IMG/VR virus record: IMGVR_UViG_3300030514_000035
Span: 1 to 51,026 of that record
Length of the DNA: 51,026 nucleotides
Reading direction: 5' to 3' (one strand)
Origin: a virus
Program-made: the position numbers and the translations under genes
Shown: piece after piece, positions 9,371 through 21,770 of the stretch
Numbering within the stretch: position 1 is the first letter of the stretch
How the letters are laid out: each line of letters begins with the position of its first letter
The notes under the pieces: model-generated
Databases searched by the model: none
Seen by the model: the letters and a program-made list of their open reading frames with translations, nothing else
What the model was told of the DNA's origin: nothing

Positions 9371-11188
9371 ATTAGCTATGTAATGGTGATATTGGATTCA
9401 ATAGGGCTTTGCTGGTATAATAGGTGATTCATTGAGGCATGGACATTCTTGTTACCCAAAGCCTTATTACACATGGCGATCCTCTATCCTATACCCCCAA
9501 TTTGTGTGTCAAATAGACCCCCATAAGAGGGGAGATAGGATAGGATTTTGCTGTGAGGTTTCGATAAGCCTGTCGATAAGAGAAAATGGGAGATTCGTCA
9601 GGGTAAGTGCGGATCGAATGGCAAGGAATCGGAAATCTCGTGGTGTGTGAGTGAGGGTACATAGGTGCTTTTGGCTAGAAAAGTACTGGCATTTTGTGGG
9701 AATGTAGCCCCGTACCCTGTCCTAATAATATGCATTAGTCCGACACCCACACGAGCAAGCACGACACCAGCGCAAAACAGGGACGTACCCACCCATTACA
9801 GAATAGTCTGACAATTGTATGACCATGCATATACTTACACATTTACATGTACGCATGCATACTCACGAGGTTGTATTTTTTAGACTGACCAAACGTCACC
9901 AGTGCTACAGCTACAAGGCTTGTCGGTATATCAAACAGTATGGCGTGTGTGCAGGTGCTTATACACAATTCCACATACTTATTCACTCAACATCACGTTG
10001 TATTATTAAGCTGCAAACCTAGTCAATCCCTACAGTACAAACACTTCACGCCACTATACACCATTATTCATCACCATACATTTATGCACTATCCTATTCA
10101 TTCTTACATTCTCCAATACACCCACGCATACACACGCACACGTAAATACCACAACAAACAACAAATGTCAACACTTATTTACATCACTTGTTCATCTTTC
10201 TTTCATCACTCATCCTTTATGCACTGTCTATGCATGCTCAACAAAGGTTATACAAGAATCTTTAGAATCACAATAAACGTTGATACATCAGCATTCATTC
10301 ATCATTAGTCATGTGTCTTCTCTTGGTCTCTTGTCTCTTGTCCTTTATGCATCATCAATGCTTACTCATTAACTATCATCAATCACTCATTAACGTTGAT
10401 ACATCAATGCTTAACACTATGTATGTATACTATACATTATGTACTATACACATGTATGTATATACACTATCATGTATGCTTAGCACTATCTATCTAGTAC
10501 TACTACCATATATTACCAGTGTCATACAGATTATGGATTTTATATTTTTAGATATAGTGCTATTATGCAGGATACTATTAAGGGTATACTAAACCCTTTA
10601 ATAGCAAGCCTTCATAGGGTATGTTAGCACCCATCTATTAAGCTACCTAGTACCCACTTGTACACCCTCTCAAGCCTACTCCCATAAGGCTTTTCAATAC
10701 CCTGCATAGTACCCTTGTATAACGCCCTATATAGGGAGGGTATATAAGCCCATATAGAAAAGCTTTATATAGAAAAGGTATATGAAAACATTTACAATCC
10801 CATTAAATCAATAAAGAAAGCGCTTTCTAATCCCTTAATTTTTATTTTCTCTTTTCTTTTTCTAGTTTACATAACGCCTTTTTTCACAATCTTTATTTTA
10901 ATCAATCATAAACCCTTATACCATGCGTATTGTAAGCACTTACAAAGTATGTGAATCTACAATTAGTATCCTAGAATATGGTAGTTTCTATGGTGTCTAA
11001 TTGTGAACACAAACTGAATAGTCTGATAATTGTAAACTACGCTTTCATCCTTGGCGCTCTAAGGCTCAGCCCACTTTTCAATTGTGAACACACTTTTTCA
11101 ACTTTATTTTTCGCCATTTTTCGACACTCATTTTTTTAACATTTTTTTTCGAATTCTGTATCCCTTGGGAGAGTAGGGGAGAAAGCAC

Positions 11189-11197
11189 TTATCCACA
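11189..11197 (+). promoter_or_regulatory. DnaA box
   Basis: Perfect TTATCCACA. Confidence 0.6.
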
Positions 11198-11353
11198 CCC
11201 TCCAAAACAGTAATTTTAAAATTTTTTTAAATTCGTGATTAACTTGACATTGTCAATACTTTTGTTCAACCTACAGCCCCAAGGCTTTTAGCCACATTTT
11301 TTACCTCCAAATTTTTTTTATTTTATTTTTATCGAGTCGTTGAATTTTAGTAG

Positions 11354-11362
11354 TTATCCACA
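11354..11362 (+). promoter_or_regulatory. DnaA box
   Basis: Perfect TTATCCACA. Confidence 0.6.
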
Positions 11363-11725
11363 GGGTTTTTACGCCTTTTTCTAGCTATTTTTTGATATTC
11401 TTATCGAATCGCTGAAATCCCTTGTGGCTCTAAGTGTGAAGGCTTTTCGAATGGAGAAATTTGATCGTGTTTCTCCTACTAAATTACGTGTATGCGTGTT
11501 ACGTGAAAATCTAGCCTGAAAACTAGCTTCAAAATTTGTTCTCGAAATTAGCGTTTTGAGGTTGTACATTTTTCAAATACATTATACATTTATCTCAGGC
11601 AAACGAGACACGGCAACAAACGAACATGAACAATATAACACATGATACACACGAGCGATTGAACATCGACTCTCTATCATATATGTGTGTGAGGGATTGC
11701 TGGAAAACAAACTTTAACAAAAGTA

Positions 11726-11754
11726 TTGACAAACTGCTGAACATCGTTTAATCT
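11726..11754 (+). promoter_or_regulatory. sigma-A early promoter P1
   Basis: TTGACA-17-TAATCT; -35 overlaps the CAAAAGTATT motif. Confidence 0.75.
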
Positions 11755-11759
11755 AAAAG

Positions 11760-11925
11760 AGTCCCACACAGCAAGACAGGGACTTGGAAGAAGTTTCCAA
11801 CGGTTTACACCTTTAGGATTTCTCGACCTCGACTGCTGAGGGAGTAACTAGCAGATGCCTGACTTGGCTGATTTAACAAGTCTCTACACCAAACTGAGAG
11901 GATTTTAGGAGGTTGAAAACTTCTC
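11760..11925 (+). ncRNA. candidate ~165-nt structured RNA from P1
   Basis: AGTCCC/GGGACT and TTGGAA/TTCCAA hairpins; CCTTTAGGATTTCTC pairs with GAGAGGATTTTAGGAGG, enclosing CTGCT/AGCAG and GACTTG/CAAGTC. Confidence 0.55.
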
Positions 11926-11936
11926 AAACAAAAGTA

Positions 11937-11966
11937 TTGACAAGCTGAAAAATGCTGGTTTATACT
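11937..11966 (+). promoter_or_regulatory. sigma-A early promoter P2
   Basis: TTGACA-18-TATACT; -35 overlaps the CAAAAGTATT motif. Confidence 0.75.
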
Positions 11967-12073
11967 AAGAGAGTACCAAGCAACACGGTACGCTGGCAGT
12001 AACTACCATACATATTTTTTTACAGTAGTTACTCAATAGGTAATAAAGTAGTAAAGTAGTTTTGTTCTTCGAA

Positions 12074-12421
12074 AATTCCATAGGGTTAACAAGTTGACAA
12101 GCCTCAACTATAAAAAGATGTTGTGAAACATCATGGCTCACTGGTTCTACGATGAGAGAAGGCTCTCTAGAATGCAGTGTTTAGGAGTGTAAGATGCCTC
12201 CAGCGAGTACAGGTTTGACTGATGTGAAACTGCCACGTAAAGTGCGACAGGTGACTAGGCAACTATGGAACATGAGTTCCATGGAGTGAATAGCGTCACT
12301 ATACCATGCAGAAACCTTGAAAGCCACTGACTGTGCAAGCTTTAAGCTTGTAGCACTGGCAAGAAATTAAGTACCATTTGGTGCTTAATTCGAGCATCTA
12401 ACTAGTATAGATATTGGAATT
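12074..12421 (+). ncRNA. ~350-nt multi-domain structured RNA / leader of unknown family
   Basis: Closed by AATTCCA/TGGAATT; long-range TGGCT/AGCCA and AGGTTT/AAACCT; about 10 local hairpins including GTGA and GCAA GNRA loops; preceded by boxA-like GTTCTTCGAAAA. Confidence 0.7.
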
Positions 12422-12460
12422 AATCACTAAATACTAAACAATGAATTGGAGAGATTTATA

Positions 12461-13336
12461 ATGAAAAATGTACAAGTAACTGTAGAAATGAAAAATGCAA
12501 CAATAGTAGGAATCGTTGAGCGTGTTGAACTTCCAAACGTTTACATCTTGGCTGGCTCTGATATCTACAAATTCCACGTTGACGAACTAAAATTCGATAA
12601 CGAAAACATGAAGCAAAAATTCGAGAAATTATACAAAACTAAAATCAAAATGAGTCAAGTTAAAATGGGTTTAAGTGAAGGTAATAAGAAGCTACAAGAT
12701 AATAAAGTAGTTGCATTCTATCAATGGAATATAACATCTGTTATATCATGTCCATTCCGCACTGAAATGTGTGAGAAAGCTTGTTACGCTCTAAAGGCTG
12801 AGCGTATGTATCCAACGGTTAACGCTCGTAGAATTTCAAACTTAGAGTTCTCAAAATCTGATCGATTTGTAAACACTATGATTGACCAAATCGAATTTGA
12901 ATTGGCTCGTAAAAAGAACAAAGGCAAAACAATTTTCTATCGTATACATGAGGCTGGCGACTTCTACAGCTATGAATACCTTGCAAAATGGCACGAAATT
13001 GCTAAACACTTCAAAGGTAATAGAAATATAGTTTTCATGGCTTACACAAAATCTTTACCATTCGTAAAAACACTTTACAAAAACGTGGGAAAAGAAAATG
13101 TTAACATCACATTCAAGTCATCAATTTGGGACGACACAAAAGAAAAATTCATTAAAATGACTGATGAACTAGGCATGAGCGTATTTACTGCAGTAGATAA
13201 AGGAACGATGGAAGAAAAAAATTATTTCGCTTGTCCATCTTCTGAGGCTTTCAAAGGCACAGAAAAAGAAAAAGACTGTGGTCAATGTAAAGTATGTTAC
13301 CTTGCAGAAACTAACGTAGCTATCGAGATTCATTAA
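12461..13336 (+). CDS. GP88-family Cys-rich (radical-SAM-like) phage protein
   Basis: CPFRTEMCEKACYA, RIHEAGDF, AYTK, C-terminal CP...CGQCKVC; RBS GGAGAG before ATG 12461. Confidence 0.75.
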   Translation: MKNVQVTVEMKNATIVGIVERVELPNVYILAGSDIYKFHVDELKFDNENMKQKFEKLYKTKIKMSQVKMGLSEGNKKLQDNKVVAFYQWNITSVISCPFRTEMCEKACYALKAERMYPTVNARRISNLEFSKSDRFVNTMIDQIEFELARKKNKGKTIFYRIHEAGDFYSYEYLAKWHEIAKHFKGNRNIVFMAYTKSLPFVKTLYKNVGKENVNITFKSSIWDDTKEKFIKMTDELGMSVFTAVDKGTMEEKNYFACPSSEAFKGTEKEKDCGQCKVCYLAETNVAIEIH

Positions 13337-13376: not shown

Positions 13377-13441
13377 TTCTCGTCAGAGCGAGAAAAAATA
13401 GTGCATTAGGCTCTGAGCGTTCCCCATATGGGGAGGTTGCA
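13377..13441 (+). ncRNA. pistol self-cleaving ribozyme
   Basis: P1 TTCTCG/CGAGAA with loop TCAGAG pairing to CTCTGA (pseudoknot); AAATAG linker; P2 TGCA/TGCA; GCG; P3 TTCCCC/GGGGAG; GU cleavage dinucleotide at 13436-13437. Confidence 0.92.
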
Positions 13442-13475: not shown

Positions 13476-14855
13476 ATGAAAATTTTAAAATCAATCACTA
13501 ACGCATTAACTAAGGCAGAAGAAAAAAGAGGCGTAGCAAGCGTGGCTACAGTTCGTCAGGATGTTGTACGCAGAGCCATCGAGCGAGAAGAATTTGAATT
13601 AATTAAATGTGCTTATCATTTAACTGATGACTATGCATGGGACGCAGTAAATAATTTTGGTCATGATAAAAATGTAACAAAAGAATACATGATGAAAGAA
13701 TATTCAATTCTAACGCCTAGTTGCTGGGTTGACCCTAAACTGCACGAAATAAATGGAATTCAATGTTATGAAATATCTATCAGCTTTCACTCAAATCTAT
13801 CATATGACATGTATGTGCCAGTGGATGGAAAAAAATCTGAGCCAGTGAAAGAAGAGAAAGAGGAGGAAAAAGAAATGGAAGAGCAAAAAGAAAAATTATA
13901 CAAGCGTTACGATTTACAGGATGAGAGTGATTTTGAAATTGAAACATTAGACCAAATGAAATTATGGCTTGCTGATTTTTGGGAAAATAACCCTGATGAC
14001 GATATGAGCGAAGAAGAGCGAAACAACTTAACTGATGAAATTTGGGCATCAGATGCTGACGAATTGTTTGAAAGACTGGCAGGAATTGATTATTCATTCT
14101 ATGTACTAGATAAAGATGGGAATGTAATCGAGGATGAATACGAAGAGTTACCAATAAGCATCGAGCAAAATTTCATCATGGGTTATGGTGTGGAAGTACG
14201 TCAGATTGAAGAAAAAACTTTACGAGTAACAGTAAGAAGAGGCGAAGCAGAAGAGGCGCAGGTCTATACAATGGAGATGCCAAAAACATTTGAAGAAGTT
14301 AACGAAATCTTTGAAGCGCAACGCACTGTCATTCGTGCAGAAGTGAATGCGATTATCGAAGAAAATGGAGGACTATCAAAAATAATTAATTCTGAAGAAG
14401 AGGAGGAAAAGGACGAGGAAGGAGAATTTGAATCATTAAATTTCATTCTTGACCATGAAAAATTATGCTTCACTGGCTACGAGTTCGAAGGAAAAGAAAT
14501 TTTCATAGAAGAAACTGGCAGTACACAATCATTGTTCCGCATGGATATATGCAAAGAAAAAAATGTAGTTACTGTCTATTCAGCTTATAGTGAGGACTAC
14601 GATGTAATGGAAGAGGTTACGCATCTATTCGATATAGAAAAACTTCGTGCAGACATTGAAAGTTGGATTGCAGAGCATGAAGATGTGCCAAATCATTGCG
14701 AGGAATACATGGAAATGAACTTCGAAGAACAGTCTGTATACATCTGTAATGAGTGTAACGAAATGCACGAAGATAAAACAATAACTTGTGAATACTGCCC
14801 AAGTGAATCGATTAGAGAAGTAGCTAAAAGCGATATGGATATGCAAGTAGTTTAA
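13476..14855 (+). CDS. large acidic multi-domain early protein with C-terminal Zn ribbon
   Basis: The real start is 13476 (RBS GGAGAT); the ORF-track start at 13428 lies inside the ribozyme. Very E/D-rich; CNEC..CEYC. Confidence 0.75.
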   Translation: MKILKSITNALTKAEEKRGVASVATVRQDVVRRAIEREEFELIKCAYHLTDDYAWDAVNNFGHDKNVTKEYMMKEYSILTPSCWVDPKLHEINGIQCYEISISFHSNLSYDMYVPVDGKKSEPVKEEKEEEKEMEEQKEKLYKRYDLQDESDFEIETLDQMKLWLADFWENNPDDDMSEEERNNLTDEIWASDADELFERLAGIDYSFYVLDKDGNVIEDEYEELPISIEQNFIMGYGVEVRQIEEKTLRVTVRRGEAEEAQVYTMEMPKTFEEVNEIFEAQRTVIRAEVNAIIEENGGLSKIINSEEEEEKDEEGEFESLNFILDHEKLCFTGYEFEGKEIFIEETGSTQSLFRMDICKEKNVVTVYSAYSEDYDVMEEVTHLFDIEKLRADIESWIAEHEDVPNHCEEYMEMNFEEQSVYICNECNEMHEDKTITCEYCPSESIREVAKSDMDMQVV

Positions 14856-14918
14856 GAGCCAAGAAAATTTCTTGGCTCTATTTAATTATCAAATAAATTA
14901 TGAAGGTGGAAAAAATAA

Positions 14919-15332
14919 ATGATAACAAGTTATAAAGGTAGAACAGTCAAAGAAGGTCAAAAGGTATCTGCATTTTGGAATTTACATCACCATGTATTTA
15001 GCTTACAAAGCAATGTAACTGAAGAGGGGAAAAGAAAAACCTTAGTAATATCACATTGCAATGGAGTAATACTTAAGGATGTTAAATTTGTAGTTCGTAA
15101 GGCTGGGCGTGAAAGAGTATTGAAAGAGCGACAAAAAAACATTCATGCATTCGTGAAAGGTGAATTTGTAGGCGAGGCAGATTTCTTACAAGAATTAAGT
15201 ATTGGCGCTGGCATGCGTGAAGCTTATTACAATCCATTTAAACAAGATTGTTTCACAGATAAAGAGACAGGCGAAAAATTAACTGGTGCTGAAATAGTCA
15301 TCTTAAAAGATAGAAAAGTATTTTACAAATAA
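14919..15332 (+). CDS. conserved phage hypothetical protein
   Basis: WNLH..FSL, KAGRERVLKERQKNIHAFV and YNPFK motifs, which I recognise from a widespread phage family of unknown function. Confidence 0.75.
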   Translation: MITSYKGRTVKEGQKVSAFWNLHHHVFSLQSNVTEEGKRKTLVISHCNGVILKDVKFVVRKAGRERVLKERQKNIHAFVKGEFVGEADFLQELSIGAGMREAYYNPFKQDCFTDKETGEKLTGAEIVILKDRKVFYK

Positions 15333-18755: not shown

Positions 18756-18882
18756 CAAATCGTTAAAATAAATTATTGACTGTATGTATGGTGTAGTGTA
18801 ACATTGATAGTGTGATACAGTATATCGTAATATCACTGAGCAAGGGATTAAAAAAATTAACCTTTAAAGGAGTTTGGCGAAA

Positions 18883-20172
18883 ATGCAAAAATCAAGCATG
18901 CAATACACAATTAAAAACTTTATGAAGGATGTAGAAGATAATCTTATTAGCTTCACATACCCTATTCAACGTGAAGGTGGACAGTGGGATAAGACACAAA
19001 AATCTTTACTGATCCATTCAATCCTAGCTAATTATCCAGTACCTTCACTATATGCACTTAATGAAAAAATAGATGGCAAATTAGTTTTGCAAGTACTAGA
19101 TGGTAAACAACGATTAACAAACATTCGTGACTTTATTGATGGAGAATTCTACTTACATGAAGTAGATACTCCTCCAGTAGTTATTCGTGGAAAAAAAGAA
19201 ATTCTTGCAGGACTAACATTTGATGAACTTAGCAAAAATGCACAGGATGCAATCCTTGATTTCTCTCTAGACATCTGCAAGATTGAAGAGGCGACAGATG
19301 AAGAAATTGAAGATATGTTCTTCCGATTAAATAATGGTACTCCATTAAGTAAGCAACAAAAAGCAAAAGCTAAAATGGGTAGTGAGTGGGCAACTAAAAT
19401 TCAAGACCTTGTTAAACATGACCTTATTACAAAGAAAGCTTCATTCACACCATTGCAAATTCGTAAGGCTGACCACGAAACAGCATTGTTACAAACTATG
19501 ATGTTGATTGACCCAAATCATGAGTTAAAAAGTATTTCATCTAATGATGTATTTGCATACTCACAAACATTCAAGGAAGATGCAAAAAATAAAGAAGAGA
19601 TTGTAAAAAAACTTGTAGATGTAATGGATTACCTAGACAATTCATTCGAAACAAAAGAACCTATGTTGCTTAAGAAGGTTCACTTCCCAATGACTATACT
19701 AACTGCAATGATGGCGAAGGAAAGAAAGCTTGACAACATCAAGTTTGGAGATTGGAGAACAGAGTTTAAAAAATCTCTTAAAGCAACTCCTGAAGACCTT
19801 CTTTCAGATGATATTATTGCAACTGACTATAAGAATTTTGGTGGCGCTGGTTCAGTTAAGAAAGATAAAACTCTTGGTCGTGTAAACGCCATGAAAGAAC
19901 ACCTTGAGAAGTATGTAAATAAAAATGTTGCTAAGGTTGCTACTACAAGCCCTGCAAAGCCTGTAGGAGAGAAAAAACCTTCTGCTAATACCCAAGCATC
20001 TAAGACTGAGAAAAAACCTGTAGAGGCTAAAAAAGAAGCGCCTAAAACACAGGCAGAAGTTAAGGTTGAAGACAAAAGAAAAACAACTGAGAAAAAAACT
20101 CCAGCAAAGCCAACAGGTAAAGCGCAACAAGTAAAGAAAGAATCAAGTAAAGAAAAAACTACAACAGCTTGA
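18883..20172 (+). CDS. DUF262 (ParB/Srx-like) domain protein with basic disordered tail
   Basis: IQREGGQW, LIHSILANYPVP, VLDGKQRLT, FFRLNNGTPL; K/T/P-rich C-terminus. Confidence 0.85.
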   Translation: MQKSSMQYTIKNFMKDVEDNLISFTYPIQREGGQWDKTQKSLLIHSILANYPVPSLYALNEKIDGKLVLQVLDGKQRLTNIRDFIDGEFYLHEVDTPPVVIRGKKEILAGLTFDELSKNAQDAILDFSLDICKIEEATDEEIEDMFFRLNNGTPLSKQQKAKAKMGSEWATKIQDLVKHDLITKKASFTPLQIRKADHETALLQTMMLIDPNHELKSISSNDVFAYSQTFKEDAKNKEEIVKKLVDVMDYLDNSFETKEPMLLKKVHFPMTILTAMMAKERKLDNIKFGDWRTEFKKSLKATPEDLLSDDIIATDYKNFGGAGSVKKDKTLGRVNAMKEHLEKYVNKNVAKVATTSPAKPVGEKKPSANTQASKTEKKPVEAKKEAPKTQAEVKVEDKRKTTEKKTPAKPTGKAQQVKKESSKEKTTTA

Positions 20173-21263: not shown

Positions 21264-21770
21264 ATGTCAAATGTACACTATGAAAAAATAACTGGTTCAA
21301 TCAATAATATGCGCAGAGGTTACAAGCATAGAAGAGATGAAGTGGTAAAAGAATTAATCGAAAGTGTAGCAGAAATAGAATTAAGCACACATGCAATGGC
21401 AGAAAGAAATGAGCAGGATTATTTATATCTAGGTATCATCAAGTTACACATAGAAAAAATTCAAGAACTACAGGCTATGATGGAAGTATTAGATGGTCTT
21501 AAGGATTCGCAAAAATTAATTGAAAAGAATTTTCCTGTAAAAAAACAGGCTATAGATTGTGGCGAAAATAAAATTTACTGGTATACATATAGACATCGTG
21601 GTTTTAGCTTAGGATGCCAGCCAAAAGGTTTTATAAGACATGATGAGAGTGTTTGCAAATTTGGTGCAACAGCATATAGAAGACCATTAACTCATGATGA
21701 GTTAGTAGAATATGAAATGCATTTATATAAAGTTGAAGATGGCACAGAAGCTACAGAGTGGGTGAAATAA
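21264..21770 (+). CDS. protein with DarA C-terminal-like domain
   Basis: YWYTYRHRGFSLGCQPKG...FGATAYRRPLTHDELVEYEM resembles the DarA_C (defence against restriction) pattern, from memory. Confidence 0.55.
   Translation: MSNVHYEKITGSINNMRRGYKHRRDEVVKELIESVAEIELSTHAMAERNEQDYLYLGIIKLHIEKIQELQAMMEVLDGLKDSQKLIEKNFPVKKQAIDCGENKIYWYTYRHRGFSLGCQPKGFIRHDESVCKFGATAYRRPLTHDELVEYEMHLYKVEDGTEATEWVK

Follow-up and report, generated by a model that had tools for sequence, protein, structure and literature searches.

The early region of phage T7 has three promoters, a boxA and an RNase III site ahead of gene 0.3, and put of phage HK022 is said to be a cis-acting RNA close to where a long operon begins. For B. 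subtilis, the relevant passages of PMC13753749 report that NusB binds rrn boxA-like RNA and that Rho is dispensable, describe rrn antitermination as unproven and state a Bacillus antitermination complex of the rrn type as an open question. The NusB-NusE interface reads position 8 of boxA in a base-specific pocket, and the boxA of lambda, which also departs from U at this position, binds more weakly (sections of PMC3177189 on this interface); a mycobacterial rrn boxA element is named, with no sequence displayed, in the portion of PMC10218544 that concerns it. Substrates of B. subtilis RNase III include stem-loops with small bulges and sites in phage SP82 (PMC4838370), and the conAn2 regions are poorly conserved, with lengths of 260-600 bp and identities of 30-40% (PMC8191782). 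SPBRE, the MrpR site of SPbeta, is dispersed in promoter regions (PMC10516654, passages on SPBRE). The most abundant transcript of L5, D29 and StarStuff is a ~500-nt RNA from the interval between Pleft and gene 89, and the L5-type Pleft RNA is described as processed, partly undeletable, encoded in a toxic region and of unknown function, with an action on the host suggested (PMC5712189, sections on Pleft).

The leader described here lies in a window of 51,026 nt (the whole stretch of DNA that was analysed; coordinates refer to it, and features are on the + strand unless stated), and this window makes up the initial 51 kb of a virus record of 145,395 bp. The phage is of Bacillus type and SPbeta-like, 145 kb in size, and carries plasmid-type partition genes. 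Its leader is a modular, rRNA-leader-like start of the early transcript and not a new ornate RNA family; as a variant of boxA-based leaders it is new as such. The rrn-like layout of tandem promoters, 5′ hairpin and boxA, proposed in a sequence-only reading of the window, holds in that its position is kept in relatives and matches host rRNA leaders. The locus shares with the Bacillus rrn leaders the order of elements, 11 of 12 boxA bases and a long untranslated RNA downstream, but its boxA-like site lies ~90 nt from the last start instead of ~10-30 nt, its promoters sit in a repeated element, boxA position 8 is a C, and no rRNA follows; a local long hairpin at the end is followed instead by a protein gene. 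As in lambda nut (boxA, boxB and N), a phage early boxA has a non-U base at position 8, but no N-like protein or conserved boxB was identified. The tandem promoters, with a predicted cut site ahead of the first gene, recall the T7 early region and, as far as the described sites go, the early RNase III sites of SP82. The L5/D29 Pleft RNA is similar in that a repeated polar element overlaps the early promoter, several hundred untranslated, hairpin-rich nucleotides follow, and the GP88 and gp82 families lie downstream; it differs in that no sequence likeness was seen, L5 and D29 have no boxA match, and ~90% of L5 transcripts are described as stopping at the end of the RNA, where no terminator was seen in our phage.

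Promoters, a repeated element and the boxA-like site

All motifs named in the sequence-only reading were found at the positions it gave. The sites of the three sigma-A-like promoters that it had proposed are all present, but P3 alone passed a consensus scan (11/12), and the overall yield of that scan was at chance level (57 sites vs 58.7 in shuffles). P1 (11562-11590) is a weak promoter-like site that fails the scan, although a P1-like site is also found in the related lineage L091. The -35 boxes of P2 (11716-11754) and P3 (11927-11966) fall within a 17-bp element, AACAAAAGTATTGACAA, located at 11716-11732 and 11927-11943, which P1 lacks; the -10 boxes are TAATCT for P2, matching the consensus at 3/6 positions, and TATACT for P3.

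The 17-bp element matches the window 18 times, compared to 0.09 expected, with copies spanning 2746-49162. Genome-wide there are 41 copies (30 on the + and 11 on the - strand), nearly all oriented along the local direction of transcription, and coding is mainly on the + strand to ~80 kb and on the - strand beyond. A -10 box of at least 4/6 lies beside 18 of the 41 copies, and the element is likely a repressor operator. The other 23 copies have no good -10 box, and several of them coincide with stop codons, as L5 stoperators do. An MrpR-like protein encoded at 27870-29183 (PF22822, E 3.6e-18) is the candidate repressor, judging from its domain, and may act through the 17-bp element. Here the likeness to SPBRE/MrpR of SPbeta is one of distribution: in both cases an element is dispersed in promoter regions, and the phage genome has an MrpR core-binding domain. 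The distribution also recalls that of the L5 stoperators.

The operator-linked sites also bear on the claim that the leader heads one long early operon. Twelve further operator-linked promoter-like sites between 20228 and 70601 argue otherwise, so that a clear dependence on the leader is left for just the first 7.8 kb of genes. From P3 to 20228 there is no operator-linked promoter, and the first terminator-like hairpin 3′ of the leader is at 14855-14879; this site came from a separate terminator scan and was overlooked by our own terminator script, whose 12 candidates (8 outside ORFs) should be taken as rough.

Short hairpins with an (A/G)GCAA loop had been proposed to open each transcript. 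Such hairpins are present after P2 (11761-11783) and P3 (11973-11991), by sequence and folding, and in relatives, with the P3 hairpin near-identical in L085 and L007, but the GCAA loop is not conserved, being absent from L180, L001 and L091. For P1, the 6-nt gap seen at P2, P3 and in relatives predicts a start that falls 3′ of the hairpin's 5′ arm, although one contig does have a compensatory change in this hairpin (11594/11607). Between P1 and boxA, none of the three stretches folded was significantly more stable than expected (z -0.4 to -1.6).

The boxA-like site at 12064-12075 was correctly identified: it is in sense orientation, with the promoter on its 5′ side and the RNA on its 3′ side, and is identical at 11 of 12 bases to the host rRNA-leader 12-mer TTCTTTGAAAACTGAA, the mismatch being a C for U at 12070 (boxA position 8); the CTGAA that follows boxA is also missing. 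The host 12-mer had 14 matches in four of five Bacillales genomes. Of the ten loci submitted to Rfam, three have the beginning of the 16S gene immediately 3′ of the match; for the remaining matches, the contig stops no more than ~120 nt away. In the contexts displayed, promoters or tRNA genes occur upstream, and tandem promoters and a short hairpin precede boxA. Across the phage genome (145 kb, both strands) there are four boxA sites with one mismatch and none that matches fully.

Five of seven related lineages have a boxA-like site in the interval from promoter to first gene, with 12/12 bases in L085, 10/12 in L007 and 9/12 in L091, L003 and L001, where the matches at 9-10/12 were chosen by eye; the more distant L093 and L018 have sites of 11/12. 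L180 has a leader and the 3′ hairpin B described below with no clear boxA 3′ of its last promoter, and L010 has no leader. A fixed boxA pattern, which the window's own site would fail, was applied to 85 groups drawn from 111 loci of the first gene's family, GP88, with at least 1,500 nt upstream. It matched upstream in the sense orientation in seven groups (five outside ORFs) and upstream in antisense in none, compared to one and two downstream, and 78 of the 85 groups had no match. In the distant phage contig L018, positions 3500-3960 hold a promoter, a hairpin, a near-perfect boxA, a ~360-nt leader, a long 3′ hairpin and GP88. Among literature titles, boxA in a Bacillus phage early leader was not found, most subscription papers being outside this coverage.

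Among actinophages, boxA-like sites were found in the early leader region of Vanisoa and Anthony, picked as GP88 matches, and of Chadwick and Arthrobacter phage Amigo, picked by motif (L215 1035-1051, L216 985-1000, L234 959-974 and L235 near 2504). The next two genes of Amigo have no Pfam match. The motif, which we take to be the mycobacterial rrn boxA, gave 44 matches, including 18 Mycobacterium and 15 Arthrobacter records, and those listed are unannotated. When actinophages were chosen regardless of motif, two of six had a boxA-like site, a count that leaves out the RER2 stretch, which did not contain the early leader. The early leader regions of L5, D29, Bxb1 and Kampy gave no boxA match, so the parallel with these phages may be one of layout only.

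Local pairing in the leader and its 3′ hairpins

After boxA, the sequence-only reading had delimited an ORF-free block of 348 nt, closed by AATTCCA/TGGAATT and containing nested long-range helices and about 10 hairpins. The longest + strand ORF inside the block is 31 aa, in agreement with that description, but on the minus strand an ORF of 58 aa extends into its 5′ end. The block is more stable than its shuffles (z -3.87, with 0 of 100 shuffles as stable), as is its reverse strand (z -3.57), and among 120-nt windows over it only two, both at the 3′ end, had z below -2. Its predicted fold has 9 hairpin loops, close to the number claimed. These loops are best described as a string of local hairpins at 12092-12360 (12092-12109, 12117-12132, 12139-12179, 12184-12201, 12263-12284 and 12323-12360) with lineage-specific sequence, and most of their stems have pair probabilities of 0.85-0.99. 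The long-range helices fared differently: TGGCT/AGCCA (0.01-0.02) and AGGTTT/AAACCT (0.04-0.06) are improbable, and CATGG/CCATG reaches at most 0.36. The closing helix is present with a probability of 0.35-0.46, but no equivalent is shared among the 10 leaders folded.

Covariation was assessed in close relatives assembled from rhizosphere and soil runs, whose contigs are of low depth and do not represent independent lineages. Of 30 substitution records, 10 fall on unpaired bases, 6 within three compensatory pairs (12121/12128, 12155/12166 and 12186/12199), 5 keep a G-U pair, 7 break a predicted pair and 2 have an uncovered partner. Compensatory changes are more frequent than under random placement (P 0.001), while the deficit of pair-breaking substitutions is marginal (7 vs 11.2 in the null, P 0.05). 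All three compensatory pairs lie in local hairpins. Isolate run X13 gave no matching contig. Also in close relatives, a segment at 12285-12349 or 12285-12365 is swapped wholesale. Across lineages, the distance from boxA to the gene varies from 162 to 476 nt with z of -1.8 to -7.6, and blastn between lineages recovers mainly boxA, the 3′ end and one 59-nt segment common to L007 and L091; when a motif shared by these two lineages was used as a query, only the L007 lineage was found.

The block was correctly placed outside known families, as an Rfam scan of the leader gave no match; at eight related loci there was likewise no match in the leader and one tRNA elsewhere. A blastn search with the leader returned chance-level phage matches and two weak plasmid matches. 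A large ornate RNA (ROOL, GOLLD or OLE) was rejected given the lack of an Rfam match and of a conserved multi-domain fold, and a retron msr-msd was rejected as the adjoining gene is GP88 and no RT domain occurs in 44 window proteins scanned. Hammerhead-like CUGAUG stretches spotted by eye were dropped without Rfam support. One RNA run of 24 contained two matching contigs (11924-12008 and 12412-12562, depth <3), neither of which lies inside the block.

The 3′ end of the leader folds into a long imperfect hairpin, B, of ~25 bp (12376-12432), which is conserved in relatives, lies just before the first gene and has a single copy in the genome by model search. A long imperfect hairpin shortly 5′ of the first RBS is possible in all 10 loci folded, although suboptimal in L003; the L007 form, which coincides in part with a second promoter, was left out of the alignment. 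In a sequence-only alignment of eight sequences from six lineages, with the 25-pair structure of the window as reference, 81.6% of cells were paired compared to 68.1 ± 1.9% in shuffles and 31-55% when the structure was slid, which is above all 500 shuffles, and both sides had changed in 17 of the 25 pairs. RNAalifold predicts a stem equal to hairpin B; in the window alone, the single-sequence model gives it pair probabilities of 0.15-0.31. Hairpin B includes the TGGAATT of the claimed closing helix, with which it competes. A hairpin-B model run on 19 records gave strong matches to its own training sequences only (5 of 19), the others being weak (best E 0.0015).

A short hairpin, A (12365-12390), is mutually exclusive with hairpin B and forms in folding when the RNA ends near 12392; alternatives resembling it exist in L091 and L003. 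No U-tract terminator was found closing the block or after the hairpin. Hairpin B has the form of an RNase III site, a long stem with small bulges, and is predicted to be an RNase III-type cut site that would free the leader RNA.

Candidate functions of the leader

Nus-dependent read-through via boxA, together with an RNase III-type release of the leader RNA, is the likeliest mechanism, and we hold it at about even. Its observed components are the motifs, their positional conservation, the local pairing and the 3′ hairpin. The first early transcript of the phage would begin with an untranslated leader made from the likely promoters, and the MrpR-like protein would repress P2 and P3 through the probable repressor operator in which these two lie. 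The degraded copy of boxA would load host NusB-S10 so that RNA polymerase keeps going, and the polymerase so loaded would read through the terminator-like site at 14855. RNase III would then cut hairpin B and separate the leader RNA from the GP88 message, and the cut end could refold as hairpin A, a stem that would protect the 3′ end of the leader. The rRNA-like layout and the one-mismatch boxA make a borrowing of the host Nus machinery likely; neither NusB nor NusG of its own was found in the phage genome. Points against this mechanism are the C8 of boxA and the missing CTGAA, the absence of a clear boxA in L180 and of a leader in L010, the 78 GP88 groups with no match, the seven pair-breaking substitutions, the modest pair probability of hairpin B in the window alone, and the twelve internal promoter-like sites, which lessen the need for long read-through. 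A phage leader with a host boxA would also be a non-essential, mutable substrate for testing rrn-type antitermination in Bacillus.

A tenable but clearly less favoured explanation, partly compatible with Nus-dependent read-through, is that the freed leader RNA is itself an effector on the host, with boxA only ensuring its making and folding. The very abundant ~500-nt early RNA of L5, D29 and StarStuff occupies the matching position, GP88 and gp82 follow in both settings, and L007 has its second promoter-like site after the block, ahead of the first gene. An effector of this kind is harder to reconcile with a middle part whose sequence, length and fold are not common to lineages, with a block end that has no U-tract terminator, and with the missing boxA match in L5, D29, Bxb1 and Kampy. 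A broader version, to which we give rather little credence, is that the early operons headed by GP88 in Bacillus phages and in cluster A mycobacteriophages have in common an ancient leader design (operator-promoters, boxA, hairpin array and cut site) whose freed RNA acts on the host. If so, the Pleft RNA of L5 would be a boxA-less form of this design, which is testable in B. subtilis. The leader also offers a concrete test for this abundant early RNA in cluster A mycobacteriophages, and a boxA-like site lies at that place in some of them.

It is unlikely that the hairpins merely stabilise the message and that boxA is a decaying relic, with the operator-promoters alone setting expression. The C8 of boxA, the lineages without boxA (L180) or without any leader (L010), the wholesale segment swaps in close relatives and the many internal promoter-like sites would all fit a relic; yet boxA recurs in position in distant phages, and in run X3, a close relative, no change is listed at 12064-12111 compared to 15 substitutions in the following 90 nt.

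Less probable still is that the block works as a processive antiterminator, RNA-only or with GP88, in the manner of put, EAR or conAn2, for although all are cis RNAs close to where a long operon begins, the place and size fit and conAn2 is likewise poorly conserved, the boxA-like site is the most conserved motif, relatives share no core, there is no EAR (none beyond a chance E of 2.2) or other Rfam match, and conAn1 lies upstream of conAn2 while GP88 lies downstream of the block. The likeness to conAn2 that had been suggested also fails in that the conAn paper does not use the term boxA and makes conAn2 dependent on an upstream ConAn1. A conAn system was rejected, as there is no + strand ORF of at least 60 aa between 10592 and 12446, hence no conAn1 directly upstream, the closing repeat is only 7 bp compared to flanking inverted repeats of 20 bp, and phage genes follow instead of a conjugation operon.

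Genes and elements around the leader

The first and third genes 3′ of the leader belong to the L5 gp88 and gp82 families. The first, with its RBS (12448-13336), matches PF17338 (E 1.7e-32) and, by tblastn, L5 gp88 (E 5e-13), and probably starts at 12461. The GP88 protein (12461-13336) has the invariant cysteines C102, C109 and C113 and a second, C-terminal cysteine cluster, a pattern that is presumably radical-SAM-like. Its structure model is confident (pLDDT 91.5), with no solved relative by sequence, and an atlas search returned GP88 alone. The gp82-family gene is at 14919-15332 (PF25735, E 5.4e-34). Between GP88 and the next gene, just 3′ of a copy of the 17-bp element without a -10 box, lies a Pistol ribozyme (13378-13441; RF02679, 68.9 bits), which was absent from the eight related loci scanned. 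Early genes also include a GmrSD N-terminal domain protein and a DarA C-terminal domain protein (18874-20172 and 21264-21770).

Elsewhere, the window codes for an actin-like partition protein, a MerR-type protein, phage replication genes and the MrpR-like protein. At 5260-7585, the MerR-type gene is divergent from the actin-like partition gene and its small partner, an arrangement that likely reflects a plasmid-prophage lifestyle. The closest relative in the plasmid collection is a 137.6-kb Bacillus wiedmannii plasmid with identical gene order around the leader. A B. gaemokensis contig encodes a GP88 78% identical to that of the phage, and this element was the sole match of a GP88 profile search in 401 Bacillales genomes; viral-contig scans with the gp82-like and MrpR-like proteins gave no matches. 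Beyond the window, the full genome has six tRNA genes on the minus strand at 137671-139301.

Upstream of the leader, positions 9400-11000 are ~1.6 kb of low-complexity DNA in which all ORFs are implausible, possibly a genome end; relatives have similarly CA-rich DNA ahead of their leaders, as do actinophages at their right ends. Just upstream of P1, an origin-like region at 11048-11434 contains two DnaA boxes (11189 and 11354) together with a 16-nt repeat in three copies, which is also found upstream of the leader in six of the seven relatives checked.
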